The notes under the pieces are model-generated. The model had not been told where the DNA came from. It saw only the letters and a list, made by a program, of their open reading frames with translations, and ran no database searches. The position numbers and the translations under genes are program-made. A stretch of 64,000 nucleotides of DNA from an uncultured Actinomycetota bacterium (GTDB lineage: Bacteria > Actinomycetota > Acidimicrobiia > Spongiisociales > UBA4744). The stretch covers positions 133,513-197,512 of the forward strand of contig CAVRPP010000007.1 of assembly GCA_963723165.1 (NCBI GenBank), read 5' to 3'. This document shows positions 17,349 to 54,756 of this stretch, one piece after another (within the stretch, counting starts at the first letter, position 1; the number at the start of each line of letters is the position of its first letter).

Positions 17349-17379
17349 TGATCCGCGTCATCAATCACCCGTTTCACCC

Positions 17380-17970
17380 ATGAGCATTACCGCCCTCATC
17401 CTGGCCGCCGGACCTTCGACTCGTCTCGGTCGGCCAAAGCAACTGCTTCCGTGGGGAGGTCCGACACTTCTGGAGAAAGTTGTTCATCAGACGTTGACGT
17501 GGCCGGTTGATTCCGTGTGGGTGGTGCTTGGGAGCCGGTACCAGGAAATCCTGGACACGGTCGATTTCGGTGATGCCGGTGTCATTGAGAACCCCGAATG
17601 GGAGGAAGGGATGGCCTCATCGATGCGCGTCGGTCTCGACTCGGCCAGTCGCGATCCTTCCGCCGAAGCCGCCTTCATCGTGATGGGTGATCAACCCGGC
17701 ATCGATCCGACGGTGGTAGCTGCCGTGCTGGATCACCGCCATTCGAGTGATGCCCTTGCCATCGTCCCGAAGTACCGGTACGTGCGCGGCCACCCCGTCC
17801 TGGTCGCCCGGGCGCTATGGGCGCGACTGATGAGCCTGGAAGGCGACCAAGGGGGACGCAATCTTCTGCAAGCCCATCCGGACTGGGTCGAAGAGGTCTT
17901 CTTTGAGCAACTGGCCCCCCGCGACGTCGATACCTCCGACGACGTGACGGATCTGCAACCGCGCGGGTAG
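17380..17970 (+). CDS. mocA: Molybdenum cofactor cytidylyltransferase (MocA/MobA-like nucleotidyltransferase)
   Basis: ALILAAGPSTRLGRPKQLLP nucleotidyltransferase motif. Adjacent to xdhC. Confidence 0.8.
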   Translation: MSITALILAAGPSTRLGRPKQLLPWGGPTLLEKVVHQTLTWPVDSVWVVLGSRYQEILDTVDFGDAGVIENPEWEEGMASSMRVGLDSASRDPSAEAAFIVMGDQPGIDPTVVAAVLDHRHSSDALAIVPKYRYVRGHPVLVARALWARLMSLEGDQGGRNLLQAHPDWVEEVFFEQLAPRDVDTSDDVTDLQPRG

Positions 17971-18183
17971 GCATCAGTCATCCATGCCAACCGGGAGACA
18001 TTCTTCCTGTGGCCGATTGATCGGGTCTTGTGTTTGCCCGAACTTCGCATCAACCCGCATGGCAAGTCGGCCCGGGGTCCCACCGTCCGGCTTCGATTCC
18101 TCCCGGCATGCCGATCAGGTCGCTGGCTAGTCTGGCCGCTGGGCCGCGTTGCGGAGGATGTTGGAGCACAGGAAGGGAGTGGG

Positions 18184-18588
18184 ATGGCCACTATTGACGC
18201 GATTGCAGGATTGGATCCCAAGACTGCAACCAGGTTCCGCAAATCGAGAGTGCGGACCACCGAGGCTCTCCTCAAACGAGCTGCCACGCGGCGCGGGCGC
18301 AAGGAACTCGCCGCCGCTACCCGGCTGGACGAGAAGCAAATACTCGTTTGGTTGAACCGTGCCGACTTGATGCGCGTCAAGGGTATTGGTTCGGAATACT
18401 CAGACCTGCTCGAGGCCGCCGGCGTCGACACCATCAAAGAGTTGCGGAGACGCAATCCGGTTTCACTCGCAAAGAAGATGGTGCAGATCAATGAGGCGAA
18501 GAAGCTTGTGCAAAGGCTCCCGACCGAGGGGATGGTGGAGAGCTGGGTGGCTCACGCCTCGGAGTTAGAACCTGTGATCTCCCATTGA
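18184..18588 (+). CDS. DUF4332 domain protein
   Basis: Internal ATG with GGAAGGGAG RBS. DUF4332-like helix-hairpin-helix region (GIGSEYSDLLEAAGVDTIKEL). Confidence 0.55.
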   Translation: MATIDAIAGLDPKTATRFRKSRVRTTEALLKRAATRRGRKELAAATRLDEKQILVWLNRADLMRVKGIGSEYSDLLEAAGVDTIKELRRRNPVSLAKKMVQINEAKKLVQRLPTEGMVESWVAHASELEPVISH

Positions 18589-18610
18589 TTCTCTGACCGG
18601 ATAGATCGAG

Positions 18611-18635
18611 GGGGCCCGTCGTGGGCCCCCTCTCT
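18611..18635. terminator. Bidirectional intrinsic terminator (10 bp GC stem, 5 nt loop) between convergent genes
   Basis: GAGGGGGCCCGTCGTGGGCCCCCTC is followed by TCTTCTC on the plus strand. It sits between the two convergent stop codons. Confidence 0.6.
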
Positions 18636-18657
18636 TCTCGCCGGCTTGTCGCTCGGC

Positions 18658-19188
18658 TCAGGCGGTGGTGGTCGCCTTCTTGGCTACCGGCTTTTTGGCT
18701 GCGGTGGTCTTGGCTACCGGCTTTTTGGCTGCGGTGGTCTTGGCTACCGGCTTTTTGGCTGCGGTGGTCTTGGCTACCGGCTTTTTGGCTGCGGTGGTCT
18801 TGGCTACCGGCTTTTTGGCTGCGGTGGTCGCCTTGGCAACGGGCTTCTTGGCTGCGGTGGTCGCCTTGGCGGGTGCTTCCTTCTCGCCTACGGGCCGGAA
18901 GGACGACCGCCAGTTGCTCAACATGTCGTCGAGCTGCTCTCGGAGCTTGCCAACCTGCTCCTGGATCTGGTCGAAGTCCATCTTGGCGCCGATGTCCTCC
19001 ACGAAGTCCTCAACCATCGTGCGGTCGGTGACCTTCGTGACGACTTTCTCGCCTTCCTTGGCCCATACGTCGTAGTCCTTGGTGAGCTTTTCGCTCATCT
19101 CGTTGACGCGTTCCGACAACTTGCGAGCGGTGACGACGGGAACGCCCACTGCTGCGTAGAGCACTTTCTTGGTCGTGTCGACAATCAT
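18658..19188 (-). CDS. HbhA-like / phasin-family coiled-coil protein with C-terminal Lys/Ala/Pro-rich repeats
   Basis: N-terminal phasin/HbhA-like coiled coil. Six AKKPVAKTTA repeats at the C-terminus. ATGA coupling to the upstream XRE gene, as in the mycobacterial Rv0474-hbhA pair. Confidence 0.75.
   Translation of the reverse strand: MIVDTTKKVLYAAVGVPVVTARKLSERVNEMSEKLTKDYDVWAKEGEKVVTKVTDRTMVEDFVEDIGAKMDFDQIQEQVGKLREQLDDMLSNWRSSFRPVGEKEAPAKATTAAKKPVAKATTAAKKPVAKTTAAKKPVAKTTAAKKPVAKTTAAKKPVAKTTAAKKPVAKKATTTA
18661..18873. repeat. 30 bp tandem direct repeat (5 perfect copies plus degenerate copies) encoding the Lys-rich C-terminal repeats
   Basis: tggctaccggctttttggctgcggtggtct is repeated head-to-tail from 18681 to 18830, flanked by diverged copies. 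Confidence 0.9.
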
Positions 19189-24548: not shown

Positions 24549-25649
24549 TCACGGCCCCGGCAAGACGTCGACGATGACGTCCTGATTGGCGGCCAGTTCC
24601 TCAGGGAGCACTTTGTCTGCCGTCAGGAACAGCGACTCGTTGCCGTGGCACGAGTCACATGAGGCGTTCTGCAGTGTGTTCCGCTGGATGTTGTGGGGTG
24701 TGGCCGGAGCAAATGTCGGCCGGGCATCGAACTCGGGGAGCAGGTTCGTCCCGTAGAACGAGAAGCTGTCCGGGTCGATGGGCACATGACGTACCACTGT
24801 GTAGCTCCAGGGTCGCTGCTCTGTGGGCTCGGCGTTCTTGCCGATGTAGAACGCCATTTCCGACGGTTCGATCTTGAAGTACGGCGTACCTGCATCCGAC
24901 GTCTGCACGTGGCAGCTGTAGCAGTTCTTGTAGTCGACCGAATGGCATACCTGACACGACAGGTTTGCCGAATGGATCGAGTGCTGCTGGTTGCCATCTG
25001 CCCCGCCTTCGACATCCGGGTGACAGTCGACGCATTCGACGGCCGCATCGTCGTAGCGATGCTCCTGTTCGGGAACGTCCCCATGCATCTCCGCAGCACC
25101 GTGACAGTCGAAACACGCCATGCCGCCGGGGTTGAAGTGGACGTCGGCGGGATACATACCGCCGTCTGCCGTCGCGTTCTTACCCTTGTACTCGTCGTTG
25201 ATCCGGCTCCCGTGGCAGCCCGTGCAGGTCAGGTTCATCGGTGGCGGATTCTTGAACGAGTGACCGTCAAGGAGTCCGCCCCCGGCGCTGGTCGGCCGGC
25301 TCACATGGCACTGGCCGCACGACGTGTGGCAACCGGCGCAATGATTCTCGAAGGCCAGCTCCAATCCGGGTGAGAGCTCCTCGCTGCCGGTCCTTTCGGC
25401 CAAAACGGTCAGGTAACCGTCGAGGGTCGAGTGCAGGCTCATCGCTTCGGTGGTGCTGATGTCGTTGTGGCAGCTGGCGCACGTCTCGATGGAGTTCGGG
25501 TCTCGGACCATGCCGGTGTGGGCGGCCTCTATCCCGTTCGCCTGGCCATCACCACCGTGGCAGGCGATACAGCCGAGAGCTCCGTGAGTTGTCTCAAAGA
25601 AAGCGTCGTCACTGACGAAAACCTGTTCCCATGCCTCTAACTGAGGCAC
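24549..25649 (-). CDS. Decaheme c-type cytochrome (no signal peptide of its own)
   Basis: Ten CxxCH motifs in 366 aa. GTG start preceded by GGAGG. In frame with the upstream lipoprotein heme gene across one TGA. Confidence 0.8.
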   Translation of the reverse strand: MPQLEAWEQVFVSDDAFFETTHGALGCIACHGGDGQANGIEAAHTGMVRDPNSIETCASCHNDISTTEAMSLHSTLDGYLTVLAERTGSEELSPGLELAFENHCAGCHTSCGQCHVSRPTSAGGGLLDGHSFKNPPPMNLTCTGCHGSRINDEYKGKNATADGGMYPADVHFNPGGMACFDCHGAAEMHGDVPEQEHRYDDAAVECVDCHPDVEGGADGNQQHSIHSANLSCQVCHSVDYKNCYSCHVQTSDAGTPYFKIEPSEMAFYIGKNAEPTEQRPWSYTVVRHVPIDPDSFSFYGTNLLPEFDARPTFAPATPHNIQRNTLQNASCDSCHGNESLFLTADKVLPEELAANQDVIVDVLPGP

Positions 25650-25658
25650 TGAACCTCC

Positions 25659-25964
25659 TCAGCCTTCACCTTCGCTGAGGGTCTCGGTGGCCACGGGTTC
25701 CACGGCCATGGCTTGCAGGGTGGCTTTGTCGGTGTGGCAGACGACACAACTGGCGTCGGCCGCCGCGGATGGGTCGGTAGTGGTCGTTGTCTGGACAGCA
25801 GTGGTAGTAGTTGTTTCCGGCGCCGTAGTCTCACTCGAAGTTGTCGTGTCATCGGCACCGCTGGTGCAACCGGCGGCCAGGAGGCCGACGAGCATCACGC
25901 CAAACACGGATAGGGTTGCTTTTCTCATCTCACCTCCTTTGGAGGAGGAGGGGCGCCGGAACAC
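25659..25964 (-). CDS. Lipoprotein with Thr-rich linker and one c-type heme motif (CVVCH)
   Basis: Start at MRKATLSVFGVMLVGLLAAGC (lipobox) with RBS AAGGAGGTG. Thr/Ser linker. One CxxCH. Confidence 0.7.
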   Translation of the reverse strand: MFRRPSSSKGGEMRKATLSVFGVMLVGLLAAGCTSGADDTTTSSETTAPETTTTTAVQTTTTTDPSAAADASCVVCHTDKATLQAMAVEPVATETLSEGEG

Positions 25965-25985
25965 CGACGCCCCTCTACCGGAGGG

Positions 25986-27065
25986 TTATCCGGTGACCGT
26001 CGGGTAGTCGGGGGCGGAGCTGAACGGCGTTTGGGCCAAGATGTCGACGTCGTCGGTCCAGCCCATCATTCCGAACTTCATGTTGATGACGTCGTAGCCG
26101 AGCAGTTTAAGGGCAGTAGCCGCTACCTGGCCGGTGTGGCCGGTGTAGCAGTACACCATGATTGGCTGATCGGTCGGCAGCGAAGGCAGGTTGGCCGTGT
26201 CGGCGATCTCTTTCCAGTAGATATTGATGGCCCCTTCGACATGCCCCAGGTCATACGACTCGGCGGCTCGCACGCTCACGACGAAGTAGTCGTTGGAATC
26301 GTCACCATCCGCCATGTTGTCGAACAGTGCCGACGCTCCCGCAACGGGCGTCCAGTCGGCCAGCATGGCCCGGGCGGAGGCGAGAGCAATGGCCGAAGCC
26401 TCGGTCTCACCGGTAGCCAGGACCGGAAGGTCGTAGGTTTCGGTGGCAACGGTTGGCTCGGTGACGGTCGGATAGCCGGGGGAAGTTGTGAAGGGGGTGG
26501 TTGCCACGACGTCGAGGTCGTTGGTCCAGCCCATCATCCCGTACTTCATGTTCTGGACGTCATAACCCAGCAACTTCAGCAACGTTGCGGCTACCTGGCC
26601 GGTGTGACCGGTGTAGCAGTAGACCACGATCGGTTGATCGGTGGGCAACTGGGCCAGGCTGTCCTCGTCGACGATGGTTTTCCAGGGGATGTTGATGGCC
26701 CCTTCGATATGACCGAGCGCGTAGGCGTCGGGGGCCCGCACGCTGACGACGAACGGATCGTTGGAGTCGTCACCGTCGGTCAGGTTCTCGTAGAGGGCGT
26801 CGGCGCTGATGACCGGCTTCCACTCAGTCAGCACAGCATTGACATGCTCGGCGAGCACCAGCTCCTCGGCGACCATGGCCTCCGTGGTGGTCGGCGCTTC
26901 GGTGGTCGTCGTGGCTTCGGTGGTCGTCGTTGTGGCCTCGGTTGTGGCCGGCGCCGCAGTAGTGGTGGTCTCTTCAGCCGCGTCGTCGGCACATCCCGCC
27001 AGCACGATCATGCTGAATACCGTGAACACCGCCAGCAGCTTGAAGACTTTGGTTCTCCGTGACAT
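25986..27065 (-). CDS. Tandem-rhodanese lipoprotein (two rhodanese domains, each with a CYTGH active-site loop)
   Basis: Lipobox VLAGC with RBS AAGGAG. Thr-rich linker. Two duplicated domains of about 150 aa with VYCYTGHTGQ. Confidence 0.85.
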   Translation of the reverse strand: MSRRTKVFKLLAVFTVFSMIVLAGCADDAAEETTTTAAPATTEATTTTTEATTTTEAPTTTEAMVAEELVLAEHVNAVLTEWKPVISADALYENLTDGDDSNDPFVVSVRAPDAYALGHIEGAINIPWKTIVDEDSLAQLPTDQPIVVYCYTGHTGQVAATLLKLLGYDVQNMKYGMMGWTNDLDVVATTPFTTSPGYPTVTEPTVATETYDLPVLATGETEASAIALASARAMLADWTPVAGASALFDNMADGDDSNDYFVVSVRAAESYDLGHVEGAINIYWKEIADTANLPSLPTDQPIMVYCYTGHTGQVAATALKLLGYDVINMKFGMMGWTDDVDILAQTPFSSAPDYPTVTG

Positions 27066-27076
27066 CAGGTTGCTCC

Positions 27077-27094
27077 TTGTGAAACAATTCACAA
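27077..27094 (-). promoter_or_regulatory. Perfect CRP/GlxR-type palindrome TTGTGAA-TTGT-TTCACAA (TGTGA-N6-TCACA) abutting the rhodanese RBS
   Basis: Seen directly in the sequence. The AAGGAG RBS overlaps its 3' end and the ATG follows 12 nt later. Confidence 0.45.
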
Positions 27095-27206
27095 CCTCCC
27101 TCGTGGGGAATCCTACAGGGCGTACGCATGGTCAAAAGCCCCTGTAGCGGGGCAAAGGGGCCCAACAAATGGGGCATTTCGACCCTATGCGCCTTTGTGC
27201 ATCGAG

Positions 27207-43876: not shown

Positions 43877-44209
43877 TCAGCCGGCCGTGACCTCTCCAAG
43901 AATTTTGCTCAGGACAGCGAGACGGTCGGGAACAGCCCGGTAGTACACCCAGCGTCCCCTCTTCTCCCGCTCGACGAGGCCGGCCTCGAAGAGCACCTTG
44001 AGGTGGTGGCTGACCGTCGGCTGCGATACCCCGATCGGTTCGACCAGATCGCAGGCGGCGCACGCTTCACCCATGCTGGCGATAACGCTGAGCAGTCGCA
44101 GACGGGCAGGGTCGCCGAGCACCCGGAACCACTCAGCCAGTTGGGCGGCCTGGGGCCTGTCGAGGGGTTCCGTCGCCAGGGGTGCGCAGCATTCGACGAT
44201 CGGTTCCAT
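43877..44209 (-). CDS. ArsR/SmtB-family metalloregulator
   Basis: ECCAPL metal-binding site and the HTH VSQPTVSHHLKVL. Start uncertain (44209 or 44239). Divergent from selD. Confidence 0.7.
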   Translation of the reverse strand: MEPIVECCAPLATEPLDRPQAAQLAEWFRVLGDPARLRLLSVIASMGEACAACDLVEPIGVSQPTVSHHLKVLFEAGLVEREKRGRWVYYRAVPDRLAVLSKILGEVTAG

Positions 44210-44306
44210 CTTTCGATGATCCCACATATTGATGCTCATCGCTATGACGACGGGCCGGTGATTGGAATGAATGTGGCAGACTGCCGATCGGAAAGGAGGT
44301 GGTGTC

Positions 44307-45350
44307 ATGGCGGAGAAACTGACTGAGTTCTCGCACGGCAGCGGCTGAGCATGCAAGCTCGGTCCTGACGAGCTGGCGCAGGTCTTGCGCCCTTTGCACA
44401 ACCATCCAACCACCCTCCACCCCGACCTGGTCGTAGGTTTGTCCTCCGGGGACGATGCCGGGGTCCTACGGCTGCCCGACGGACGCCTGATGGTGCAGAC
44501 GGTTGACTACTTCACGCCGGTGGTCGACGACCCTGGCGATTGGGGCCGGATCGCCGCGGCCAATGCACTGTCCGATGTCTACGCCATGGGAGGGACGCCA
44601 TCAACCGCTCTGCAGCTGATCGGTTGGCCCCGCGGGACGCTGTCCTTTGATCTGCTCGGTGAGGTGATTCTCGGTGGAATCGGCAAACTCGAGGAAGCCG
44701 GCTGTCTGCTGATCGGTGGCCACTCGATCGATTCCCCCGAACCAACATACGGCTTTGCGGTCACCGGATTTGTCGAACCGGATCATCTCACTACCAACGG
44801 GGGAGCCCGTACCGGCGACCGCCTCGTCCTCACCAAGCCGATCGGTACCGGGATCATTTCGACCGCCATCAAGAACCACAAGGCCAATCCCGGGATGATC
44901 GTTGAAGCGATCAGCGTCATGGCAGAGCTCAATGCGGGGGCGGCCCGGGCAATGTCCGCCGTGGGTGTCAACGGGGCGACGGACGTGACGGGCTTCGGGC
45001 TGCTCGGCCACCTCGGAGAGATGGTGGCCGCCAGCGGAGTGGCCGCAATCATCCGGCACGCCGCCGTGCCGCTGATCGACGGCGTACGCGACCTGGCCCT
45101 GGCCGGTGTGGTCCCTGGAGGCACGGCACGGAACCTGGTTGCTGTGGAACGGTTTACCGATTTCGGGAACCTCAACGCGGCCGATCAGCTGATCCTGGCC
45201 GACGCTCAGACCAGTGGCGGCCTCCTGATTTCGGTGGCCGCCGACCGGACCCGCGATCTGGTCGAAGCACTGACCAGCGAGGGGACGAGAACCGCGGCCG
45301 TCGTTGGCGAGATTACCGGGGATCAACCCGGCACGATCGCCGTCCGCTAG
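44307..45350 (+). CDS. selD: Selenide, water dikinase (selenophosphate synthetase), selenocysteine-containing form
   Basis: ATG after GGAAAGGAGG. Reads MAEKLTEFSHGSG-U(TGA 44346..44348)-ACKLGPDEL and continues in frame into ORF 44385..45350. A hairpin AGCUCG-GUCCUGA-CGAGCU starts 8-9 nt after the UGA. Confidence 0.9.
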
Positions 45351-45357
45351 GGGACTG

Positions 45358-46557
45358 ATGGGACAGGACACCGGGCCGGGGTTTGGCAGGCAAACGTGGG
45401 CACTGACCGTCGCAATTGCATTCGTGATGACGGGAGTGAGCCTGGTGGCCCCGATCATTCCGCTCTACGCCCTCGAGTTCGGCGTGAGTTATACCGCCGC
45501 CGGTGCCTTGATCACCGGGTTCGCCCTTGCCCGGCTCATGTTCAGCCTTCTGGGCGGCGTGGCCGGTGATCGGTATGGAGCCAGGCGAATCGCCGTCGGG
45601 GGCGCCCTCCTGCTGACCGTTTCGAGCGTGACTGCCGCCCTGGCCCCCTCATATGCGGCGCTCCTCGCTTCGCGCTTCGTCGAGGGGATGGGATCCGCAA
45701 TTCTGGCAACGACCGCCGCACAGTATCTGGTTCAGACGACCCCGAAGCCGCGTTTGGGTCGCACCATGGCGCTGTATCAGACCGGCCTGCTGATCGGGGT
45801 TGCCATCGGTCCCTTCATCGGTGGTCGCCTGGCCGAACTAGGAGACTTCCGGACGCCCTTCTGGGCGTACGCCGCCCTCGGGCTCGTGGTGGCCGTGCTG
45901 GTGACGGTGTTCATCACCGATCTGCCCCCGTCCGGCAAGACCGCGGGTGAGTCGTTCCGGGCAACCGGGGACATTCTCAAGATGCCCTCATTCCGGGTCA
46001 TCCTCTTTGTGGCGTTCTCGCTCTTCATCATGCGAGGAGGTGCCCGGATCACCCTCATTCCGCTTTTCGGCAGTGAGGTCGTCGGCCTGACCCCTTCTCA
46101 GATTGGAGACGTGCTGTCTATCTCGGCCGTCACCAATCTGTTGATCGTCAATCCGGGTGGGCAACTCGTTGATCGCATCGGTCGCAAGCCGGTCGCCATC
46201 GTGGGTCTCGTCCTGGCCGGTGTGGCCACTGCCGCATACGGCTTTTTCGAGACGTATGGTTCACTGCTCGTCGTGTCGGGATTGTTCGGGCTCACCTCTG
46301 GACTGGCGTCGATCCCGCCCCCGACCATGGTCGGGGACCTGGCGCCGGCAGGAGCCGAAGGTTCGGCCGTCGGCTTGTACCGCACTTCGGGCGATTTGGG
46401 TTTCATCGTTGGGCCAATCGTCATGGGAGTCGTGGCCGACGCCGGAGCCTTCGCGACCGGGTTCATCATCAGCGGCGTGTTGTTGGGCCTGGCCGCCCTG
46501 GCGCTGACCAGGATTCCCGAGACTCGCCACCGGTCCGGTACCGTGAAAACGACATGA
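45358..46557 (+). CDS. MFS transporter
   Basis: Twelve predicted TM helices. MFS motif [12 protein letters not shown]. Confidence 0.8.
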
Positions 46558-46985
46558 CCGACCGGGAACGCCTCGAGAAGATCGCCGGCGCCCTTTCGAT
46601 CGGCCGGGTGGAGCGTCATGTCTTCCTATGCGCCCAACAATCGACGCCGCGCTGCTCGACGGCGGCGGAAAGCGGAGAGGCCTGGACGTATTTGAAGAAC
46701 CGGCTCAAAGAACTGGACCTCACCAGTCCTCCTCCTCACTGGCGCGGTGATTTCACGGTCGATCCGCCGACGACGGCTCCGGGCGTTGGCAAGGTGTTGA
46801 GGAGCAAAGTGGACTGCTTCCGCGTCTGCGAACAAGGCCCCATTGCGGTCGTGTATCCCGATGGGGTGTGGTATCACTCGGTCGACGTCAACGTCATGGA
46901 GAGAATCATCCAGGAGCACCTCATCGGCGGATCGCCGGTCACCGAGTATGTGTTTGCCACCGGTCGGCTTGGACAGATGGATTGA
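46554..46985 (+). CDS. Thioredoxin-like [2Fe-2S] ferredoxin domain protein
   Basis: ATGA overlap with the MFS gene stop. Cys pattern HVFLC...C...[10 protein letters not shown]. Confidence 0.6.
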
Positions 46986-52843: not shown

Positions 52844-53051
52844 CTTGTGAACGTTACACCTCGTCGATCTGCAGCCGGTGAGTTTCGATGTCGTCGCTGC
52901 ATTGAACCGGCCGTCCCCCCAAGGTCAGTCGTGCGCATCGGTTCGGTGAGAGGCACTGCGACTATCTGAGTTGTCGCCTCCACGATCTACCCGGGTAGGT
53001 TCGGCGGTAGGCTTGATGCGCCGCACCGGCTGACGTAGAAAGGGGGGCCTA

Positions 53052-53225
53052 GTGGACGACAGCTTCGTCTGGCCCGCAGGAGTCATGCTTGCGGGAGTGG
53101 GCGTCTGGATCGCACTGATCGTCTGGCGTGCGTTCATCGGCCGCCGGAGAGAATGGCCACCCTGGATAGAACCAGGCATGTGTCTCACCGCAGGTGGCCT
53201 CATCCTCATCTCCGGTTTCGCCTGA
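53052..53225 (+). CDS. Putative small two-TM membrane peptide
   Basis: GTG follows AAAGGGGGG. The 57 aa product is hydrophobic and is not in the ORF track because it is shorter than 60 aa. Confidence 0.25.
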   Translation: MDDSFVWPAGVMLAGVGVWIALIVWRAFIGRRREWPPWIEPGMCLTAGGLILISGFA

Positions 53226-53782
53226 CTCTTGATAGACGGCCCGGTCGTGGGCCAAATCGTTCGACTCGGACTACTGCTTGGCCTGGCCGCATACGCCTAC
53301 CGGAAGATCGGCAAGGGTGTGGCTCTAGCCCAGATGGCGGCGGCGGCCCTTGTAGGCGTCCTCGCCCTGGTGGTGACCTTCTAGCGACCCTGCATATCGA
53401 TTCAACCGCCGTCAATCATGGCGGTCGCATCGATAGCCGGTTTCGACTCGGAGTGCGGCGCCCAGACCCAGCCCCTTTCCAGGTTCCCCTCCTTGGCAGA
53501 AGCCAGATTGCGGCAATCGTTGGGTAATCGCCAGAGTTGACAGTCATCTCATCGTTGGGGGCATCCCGACCAGGTCGCCACCCGACGACTATCCGCAGCG
53601 GCGTCCGGGATGACCCAACGGCCACGGAAATTGCCACCAACCGTTCAGCTCGGTGGCGGTCCGGCGGGTGCGGCGATGGGGGATTCTTCTGTCCCCGCCA
53701 TCTCCCATAGTATGGAATTGGGAATTGGATGCGATCAGGAACAAGCGATCGTGCGATCGCTTTGTGCGAAAGCGAGGCAGGG

Positions 53783-54178
53783 ATGGGGAGTCGACCAGTT
53801 GGACCGGGTCTCGTGGACACGAAGGTGAACATACGGATACTGCTCGCTGCGTTCTGGATATGCCATTTCCTGCTGTGGACATTCGGTGACATGTTCTCAG
53901 TGGCACAGGAGATGGGCGAGCCTGTCACCGATTCGTTGTTCCTCTTCGTTGCGCCTACGACTGCGATCGTGCAGGCTCTGATGGTCGCCTTTTGCTTGGT
54001 GGGGCGTCCCGCCTCCGTTCGGCTGGCCAACCTGATCGTGGCTCCTGTGTACCTGTTGCTCAACGTAGTTTTCTTTGTTGATGCCACACAGGGTTGGGAG
54101 TATTACCTGGGCATCGGCTATGTGCTGTTCAACGTGCTGATCTTCTGGCATGCGTACAGGTGGCCCACGAACGAGTAG
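53783..54178 (+). CDS. Hypothetical four-TM membrane protein
   Basis: Internal ATG of ORF 53729..54178. Hydrophobic segments. Lies in a lower-GC region. Confidence 0.45.
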   Translation: MGSRPVGPGLVDTKVNIRILLAAFWICHFLLWTFGDMFSVAQEMGEPVTDSLFLFVAPTTAIVQALMVAFCLVGRPASVRLANLIVAPVYLLLNVVFFVDATQGWEYYLGIGYVLFNVLIFWHAYRWPTNE

Positions 54179-54756
54179 AGCCCCCGCCCATATCCCTCAC
54201 TCTGCGCTCCCGGCTCAGGTGACATTGAGTGAACCCCGATAACGGGGGGCAGGCGAGTCGCCCATACCTACGAGCGAACCGGCATTCTGCGCTACCCGCC
54301 GGGTGACATTCAGACACCCTCGCATGAGCCTGGCTTGGGTAGCTGCAGGGAAGTAGCACCTCGGAACCAATCGAACGGATGACCGACGATGGAGACCGCC
54401 ATGCTGTCCTGCCATGACCGGCGGCTGCCCCTAGACAGCAGGCGGAGTGCCGCCGGTGTGGGCGTAGTCTTTTCTGGCCGTTATCCACCAGCTGCCATCG
54501 ATGTGCGCCACGGTGAACAAGTCGAGGAAGTCGCAACCGAAGTAGTCGGTTTCGACCAACACTGCTATCCAAGGAGATCCTCGACAGGATGGACGGACTC
54601 AAGCCACCGTGCGAGATCGCAGACCAGGCAAGCCGGTTCGTGCAGCTCGGCCGGCAAAATCGCTACCTCTTGAAGGAGCGGGCCGATGCAGCGCGTGACA
54701 ACGACACTGCGGCTGCACCTCCGCTGGCTAACCCGTTAGGGCTTCATCAACAACAG

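Follow-up and report, generated by a model that had tools for sequence, protein, structure and literature searches.

A selD gene with an in-frame UGA predicted to encode selenocysteine, and an adjacent candidate SECIS hairpin, in an uncultured lineage of the Acidimicrobiia

The window, i.e. the whole 64-kb stretch of DNA that was analysed (G+C content 63%), contains a selD gene whose reading frame is interrupted by a TGA at the codon of the catalytic residue. With a probability of about 0.88 we read this locus as a selD gene with selenocysteine (Sec) as the catalytic residue and with the second of two hairpins downstream of the TGA, here called H2, as the best candidate for its SECIS element. 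The product is predicted to be a selenide, water dikinase of 347 amino acids. The first-pass annotation had proposed from the letters alone that selD encodes a selenoprotein, with UGA-Sec in the active site. This prediction is strongly supported by the match to TIGR00476, by the alignment to Cys17 of the Escherichia coli enzyme and by the TGA in nine of nine relatives. The gene and the features of its reading frame are the following.

44307-45350, forward strand: complete selD gene for selenide, water dikinase, with 347 codons and a TAG stop and with UGA (predicted Sec) as codon 14; based on the translation, TIGR00476, NF002098 and the structure 3u0o
44290-44299, forward strand: ribosome-binding site GGAAAGGAGG, 7 nt 5' of the ATG at 44307; read from the sequence
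44346-44348, forward strand: in-frame TGA, the predicted Sec codon (Sec14), aligned to the catalytic Cys17 of E. coli SelD; the same codon occurs in relatives
44385-45350, forward strand: truncated open reading frame (ORF) of 321 aa with a TTG start, from the mechanical ORF list; public calls give it instead of the real gene

From the ATG at 44307 the frame runs through 13 sense codons (MAEKLTEFSHGSG) into the TGA and continues as ACKLGPDEL, remaining open up to the TAG at 45348-45350; the translation after the TGA begins ACKLGPDELAQVLRPL. The frame MAEKLTEFSHGSG-TGA-ACKLGPDEL behind a strong ribosome-binding site, as described in the first-pass annotation, is thus present, with GGAAAGGAGG at the expected place. 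When Cys is put in for the TGA, the product of 347 aa reaches 387.5 bits against TIGR00476 (cutoff 125), residues 4-313 lying on profile positions 1-309, and 353 bits against NF002098 (cutoff 299); residues 3-344 are aligned in the searches with these profiles. The best match among solved structures is E. coli SelD (3u0o, E = 1.9e-77, residues 4-341), where SHGSG[U]ACK of the window protein lies over SHGAGCGCK, with U14 on Cys17 and Lys17 on Lys20. The glycine-rich loop with Sec or Cys, and with Lys three residues further on, shows no variation across the clade alignment (A1). Because the profile match begins at position 1 and the alignment to 3u0o runs across the TGA, the frame 5' of the TGA is itself genuine SelD sequence; the earlier expectation that it would align to SelD N-termini is confirmed by TIGR00476 from profile position 1 and by 3u0o from residue 4. 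In the precomputed Pfam annotation the PurM-like AIRS N- and C-terminal domains (PF00586 and PF02769) are assigned to the public gene call of this locus (P0001) and to all listed homologues.

Gene callers take the TGA as a stop, and the start of selD is therefore cut off in the annotation. As already remarked in the first-pass annotation, the ORF track truncates the gene (44385-45350, 321 aa, TTG), and the public call P0001 is the same truncated protein (321 aa, 100% identical). All homologues with at least 64% identity in the protein search are calls of 286-321 aa, covering 82-93% of the query, and P0002 and P0113 start 3' of the TGA. Full-length proteins of about 347 aa occur in this search only near 60% identity and carry Cys at the Sec position, as seen in P0056, P0057, P0063, P0071 and P0088.

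Nine species-level loci from metagenome-assembled genomes (MAGs) of Acidimicrobiia/Actinomycetota (L001-L009), which share 62-90% identity with the query and match its residues 1-347, served as close relatives. In an alignment with these SelD forms, a check of the kind suggested in the first-pass annotation, TGA stands at the identical codon in nine of nine, behind the peptide xxKLTx[YF]SHGSG. Seven of the nine (L001-L005, L008 and L009) have the GGAAAGGAGG motif in the same place, followed by an equally placed start codon, ATG or GTG. L008 and L009 carry a single-base insertion, which may be an assembly error and leads to a frameshift further downstream. Among the fetched SelD loci that could be classified, which belong to several phyla, 98 of 136 have TGA and the other 38 have TGC or TGT, so that the position of the TGA exceeds what chance would give. 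Bacillales and Planctomycetota are represented among the TGA forms, and the Cys forms are mostly cyanobacterial. Further sequences for the covariation analysis came from a metagenome scan with two patterns, of which the SHGSGCAC pattern matches Cys codons only; the relatives among the matches listed have identities of at most 67% and do not include those of 80-90%.

The codons in front of the TGA have diverged most at the third position. When 18 loci of the wider clade are compared over the ten codons before the TGA, 372, 370 and 611 differences are counted at codon positions 1, 2 and 3, respectively. In the last six codons (Y/F-S-H-G-S/A-G) nearly all changes are synonymous, including switches between TCN and AGC serine codons. 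The 13 upstream codons, the ribosome-binding site and the start codon are kept with a third-position bias in relatives down to about 56% identity. Judged by these substitution patterns, the peptide upstream of the TGA is under purifying selection, which is a mark of translated sequence.

The RNA directly downstream of the TGA can form two adjacent hairpins and possibly a stem that encloses both. Positions in the RNA are counted with the U of the UGA as nt 1.

44356-44374, forward strand: hairpin H1 (nt 11-29), named in the first-pass annotation; stem AGCUCG/CGAGCU, loop GUCCUGA
44375-44391, forward strand: hairpin H2 (nt 30-46), directly 3' of H1; stem GGCGCA/UGCGCC, apical loop GGUCU (44381-44385)
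44352-44398, forward strand: possible basal stem of UGCA (44352-44355) with UGCA (44395-44398), which would close around both H1 and H2 and so make a three-way junction

In the minimum-energy fold of the region it is H2 that forms; on its own this hairpin has a folding energy of -10.2 kcal/mol. According to the consensus for bacterial SECIS elements (bSECIS; PMC13188914) an apical loop of 3-9 nt is carried on a stem of 4-16 bp, with a G in the first two loop positions and usually a G or U after the leading G, a distance of 16-37 nt from the UGA to the loop and a minimum free energy (MFE) of at most -7.5 kcal/mol. H2 agrees with this consensus on four of four criteria, having a 5-nt loop, a 6-bp stem, a loop that starts G-G-U, a spacing of 32 nt (nt 4-35) and an MFE within the limit.

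Sec and Cys forms were compared in gapless alignments anchored at the Sec/Cys codon (A2 and A3). All six pairs of H2 are present in 65 of 93 Sec forms, with five pairs in 11 more, and in none of the 38 Cys forms, of which 30 are distant cyanobacterial sequences and seven are non-cyanobacterial ones that behave alike. Counted by alignment cells, H2 is paired in 86.9% among the 89 distinct Sec-form RNAs versus 48.7% among the Cys forms, and controls with a slid partner strand reach at most 53%. The covariation score of H2 is 0.368 versus 0.107 in shuffles, none of 500 shuffles reaching 0.368, although the sequences compared are mutually related and coding, so that shuffle statistics overstate the significance. 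Five of the six pairs change on both sides among the Sec forms, and pair 31:45 occurs as six standard pair types. Folding of nt 28-48 without a fixed register gives a mean z of -2.99 in Sec forms versus +0.19 in Cys forms (p ~5e-14; like the other comparisons of Sec and Cys forms, uncorrected for relatedness). In the loop, G37 and U38 are each at least 90% conserved among the 89 Sec-form RNAs, and G-U at nt 37-38 is found in about 85 of 93 Sec forms versus 8 of 38 Cys forms. On this comparative evidence H2 is likely the SECIS core, with the predicted SelB-binding stem-loop.

For the 47-nt piece the MFE fold includes the basal stem (-20.7 kcal/mol, z = -1.7), which is likewise predicted in several relatives; its cells (nt 7-10 with nt 50-53) are paired in 60.1% of cases in Sec forms versus 61.8% in Cys forms. 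A basal stem enclosing H1 and H2 may at most be suggested tentatively from these folds, and as its pairing is without Sec specificity, neither the stem nor the three-way junction is claimed here. An Rfam scan at the gathering threshold gave no match in the window, and a permissive scan of 44280-44460 returned only chance-level matches (E > 3) to unrelated families.

The first-pass annotation had placed the SECIS-like hairpin one step closer to the UGA. The 6-bp stem with loop GUCCUGA that it described is present as H1, but it is the adjacent H2 that agrees with the bacterial SECIS consensus throughout, and H1 is probably not the SECIS, in view of its spacing and its lack of Sec specificity. 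H1 is probably a side effect of the coding sequence, or has at best an accessory role: it may follow from the codons for K-[LIV]-x-P-x-[DE]-L, or be a helix, lower or accessory, that can be dispensed with and is melted by the ribosome.

A larger part for H1 would follow if the two hairpins formed a composite, Y-shaped SECIS, with H2 as the fdhF-like, SelB-binding apex and H1 as a functional spacer or pausing helix that fills 19 nt; the folding of these nucleotides would then allow the apex to work 14 nt beyond the strict E. coli spacing. We consider this unlikely. It draws on the perfect conservation of H1 in the close clade, with paired changes, and on a register-free fold of nt 4-29 that is slightly more structured in Sec forms (mean z -0.85 versus -0.20 in Cys forms, p ~2e-4); against it, the pairing of H1 in fixed register fails to separate Sec from Cys forms (65.5% versus 61.8% of cells paired).

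Less probable still is that H1 is itself the SECIS that recruits SelB, with selD as a selenoprotein gene all the same. H1 is stable, with -9.5 kcal/mol for the hairpin alone and none of 200 shuffles folding as well, and its loop begins with G-U. The close clade has it perfect, with apparent compensatory changes at 16:24 (G16-C24 is replaced by A-U in L006, L007, L083 and L086) and at 13:27 (C-G, G-C or A-U), and the difference between Sec and Cys forms over nt 4-29 applies here as well. In its 7-nt loop, 6-bp stem and MFE H1 also lies within the bSECIS consensus, but it starts at the eighth base after the TGA (7 nt between), which leaves its apical loop only 13 nt after the UGA (nt 4-16), below the range of 16-37 nt. 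To the nearly equal pairing in Sec and Cys forms comes a perfect H1 in three Cys forms (L036, L136 and L154), whereas many Sec clades are without it (1-3 of six pairs) and yet have kept H2. The pairing that does exist is explicable by the codons of the conserved motif K-[LIV]-x-P-x-[DE]-L.

The genes required for Sec insertion were searched for in the window and around the related loci. ARAGORN found no tRNA genes in the 64-kb window, and neither selA nor selB was detected in it with NCBIfam on 20 long ORFs or by tblastn with E. coli SelA and SelB. ARAGORN and tblastn also gave no selA, selB or tRNA-Sec within 10 kb of selD in L001-L009 and L081-L089. The same probes find tRNA-Sec, selA and selB beside selD in many distant loci and other SelD clades. 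In the present organism selA, selB and selC would be expected elsewhere in the genome, as the first-pass annotation had it. When the window was screened, crudely and non-exhaustively, for further coding frames that combine a TGA interruption with an H2-type hairpin, only selD came up. The genes that flank selD are the following.

43877-44209, reverse strand: divergent gene for an ArsR-family regulator (PF01022 HTH_5, 54.1 bits)
45358-46557, forward strand: gene for an MFS transporter (PF07690 MFS_1, 209.7 bits), starting 8 nt after the selD stop

Both neighbours recur in L001-L005, L008 and L009, the arsR-family gene in the same position with 83-89% identity and the MFS gene directly 3' of selD with 85-89% identity. 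The MFS gene is probably co-transcribed with selD.

Two further explanations do without Sec altogether, and both are very improbable. If the TGA were a true stop, the gene would either start downstream, as the 321-aa ORF with the TTG start, or be a decaying pseudogene. Public gene callers do give the downstream ORF only, the Sec machinery was not seen in the window, and two relatives (L008 and L009) have frameshifts; but the downstream ORF is without the glycine-rich loop, the catalytic Sec/Cys and the Lys (C17 and K20 in E. coli), and a true stop is hard to reconcile with the third-position bias across a conserved start, ribosome-binding site and upstream codons, with a TGA kept in 98 loci with no drift to other codons, or with a Sec-specific, covarying hairpin 3' of it. 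A pseudogene was rejected in view of the purifying selection 5' of the TGA. A sequencing error was rejected as well, since the TGA is present in independent assemblies.

Equally improbable is a read-through of the UGA without Sec, whether by reassignment of the code (Trp or Gly) or by a near-cognate tRNA that inserts Cys or Trp aided by the structure; the hairpin-aided, Sec-independent insect SPS1-UGA (PMC4561486) and the Sec machinery not seen in the 64-kb window speak for it, but TGA ends well-identified genes of the window at the profile ends, H2 fits the SelB-type consensus and the fdhF apex, and other clades with the same element at the same position have tRNA-Sec, selA and selB adjoining selD. 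The genes concerned are those for NAD+ synthase, GlnE and DAHP synthase, which end in TGA and are aligned to the profile ends; because TGA terminates such ordinary genes, the genetic code is taken to be standard, and code reassignment was rejected on this ground.

With Cys-type E. coli SelD (3u0o) the predicted Sec enzyme of the window shares a full-length alignment and the conserved motifs DDAGV, TVDYF, NALSD and TDVTGFG; unlike Cys-type genes, the window gene has UGA in place of the Cys codon and possesses H2, whose cells are only 48.7% paired in Cys forms. SelD of Aquifex aeolicus (PDB 2yye/2zod), which naturally contains Sec but was crystallised with Cys in its place, matches the window product with E = 2.2e-59. 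As in the known Sec-containing SelD proteins, there is one predicted Sec, placed in the glycine-rich N-terminal loop (G-U-x-C/A-K), and the likely SECIS is located within the coding region just after the UGA. In kind the window gene does not differ from them; it differs in coming from an uncultured lineage of the Acidimicrobiia/Actinomycetota in which all database entries are truncated. It is also located between arsR-family and MFS genes and not beside selA, selB or selC. Sec forms make up 19% of prokaryotic SelD genes, with Sec always at the same position, and their bSECIS elements were recovered by RNAz (Mariotti et al. 2015, PMC4561486). Among bacterial selenoproteins FdhA and SelD have the widest distribution, which includes Actinobacteria such as Rubrobacter (PMC1794560), and examples of Sec-containing SelD include Rubrobacter xylanophilus, Moorella thermoacetica, Geobacter and Clostridium species (Zhang et al. 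2006, PMC1794560).

The SECIS of E. coli fdhF, which has been defined by experiment, has an upper stem-loop at nt 15-31 that begins 11 nt past the UGA and has a bulged U17 (PMC8659212), and G23/U24 of its loop is needed for SelB function (PMC8659212). The apex of H2, GCAGGUCU-UGC (GCA-GGUCU-UGC), is almost identical to that of fdhF, GCAGGUCUGC (GCA-GGUC-UGC). Unlike the fdhF element, H2 begins 26 nt past the UGA, with its G-U at G37/U38 and its apex 14 nt further away, and its stem consists of six uninterrupted pairs with no bulged U. H2 accordingly departs from the strict E. coli rule of a 17-nt stem-loop 11 nt after the UGA with G23/U24 and U17, and agrees with the broader consensus of bSECISearch; H1 starts 7 nt after the UGA.

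Translation starts at the ATG at 44307 behind the strong Shine-Dalgarno site. In the proposed mechanism, the UGA, once in the A site of the ribosome, would be decoded by Sec-tRNA(Sec), delivered by SelB that is presumably tethered to the mRNA through H2 just downstream. The product would be a selenide, water dikinase of 347 aa with Sec14 and Lys17 in a flexible, glycine-rich N-terminal loop, an enzyme predicted to make selenophosphate from selenide and ATP. As selenophosphate is required for Sec-tRNA(Sec), the synthesis of SelD would therefore be self-reinforcing. Sec-containing SelD, its SECIS and this self-reinforcing synthesis are already established; the locus adds an uncultured lineage to them.

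For the annotation of this lineage the consequence is that all public selD calls lack the part before the TGA (286-321 aa versus 347 aa) and that the catalytic loop is thereby lost. The 6-bp hairpin at nt 30-46 together with G-U at nt 37-38 provides a simple marker for Sec-type selD in metagenomes. Other in-frame TGAs of the same genome may be Sec codons, too. In automated inventories the enzyme will be mislabelled or given the wrong size, and the use of Sec by Acidimicrobiia/Actinomycetota of soil and sediment may be missed.

Every public SelD call from the lineage of the window (P0001-P0055 and P0113 among the protein database matches) is truncated at the TGA, with lengths of 286-321 aa; P0113, which is named SelD by NCBI, has 327 aa and MAQVLRRLH as its first residues. 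The Cys-type homologue P0057, with approximately 60% identity, still reads SHGSGCACKLGPDELAQVL and thus retains the amino-acid motif which in the Sec forms encodes H1 and H2, the two hairpins 3' of the Sec codon. As judged from its protein sequence, P0057 may have been converted from Sec to Cys recently and may retain traces of a SECIS, as in the kind of conversion described in PMC1794560.

The selD genes of two close relatives, L008 (near 10503) and L009 (near 10130), each carry one extra base in almost the same place, at about codon 166-168, as judged against the nearest intact relative of each. Neither insertion lies within a long homopolymer, and in both loci the rest of selD is out of frame after the insertion. 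The extra bases could be errors of long-read assembly or could reflect real decay.

A separate clade of Sec-containing SelD is characterized by the motif SCAG-U-A[SA]KLSQ..QVL and includes the loci L110, L114, L116, L117, L119, L121, L127, L128, L130, L131, L135 and L140, among others. Here selD is directly flanked by tRNA-Sec on its 5' side and by selA, followed by selB, on its 3' side, and the genes form a compact selC-selD-selA-selB cluster. In the Bacillales loci L010-L030 selA adjoins selD, and tRNA-Sec was also found near selD in L021, L023 and L073.

The following features of the window were recorded:

24552-27131, minus strand: multihaem c-type cytochrome adjoining a two-rhodanese-domain protein
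43877-46557: divergent arsR-family gene, selD (plus strand) and MFS gene (plus strand)
44226-44245: imperfect inverted repeat ATAtTGATG-CT-CATCGcTAT in the arsR-selD intergenic region, conserved
46554-46985, plus strand: ORF of 143 aa, the ATG of which overlaps the MFS stop codon (ATGA)

The cytochrome possesses an MtrC/MtrF-like domain and weakly matches the selenite/tellurite-reduction cytochrome ExtM, and its neighbor gave weak, sub-threshold matches to selenouridine synthase and rhodanese selenoprotein models; since every one of these matches scores well under the cutoff, the pair is not put forward as linked to selenium. Two regions of about 1.8 kb each, 17349-19184 and 52925-54756, contain no ORF of at least 100 codons passing the GC3 filter, and neither delivered tRNA or Rfam matches.

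The order of divergent arsR-family regulator, selD and MFS transporter is kept in all seven close relatives with enough flank (L001-L005, L008 and L009). The 143-aa ORF encodes a Cys-rich protein without a Pfam match, and the overlap of its start with the MFS stop codon suggests translational coupling in a putative selD-MFS-orf143 operon. In the relatives the intergenic inverted repeat takes the form ATATCGATG-N2-CATCGCTAT, and a further conserved block of this region, ATGTGGCAGACTGCC, is located immediately 5' of the selD RBS; the repeat and this block may constitute an operator and a promoter. That selD and the transporter form a metalloid-responsive unit is only a guess.
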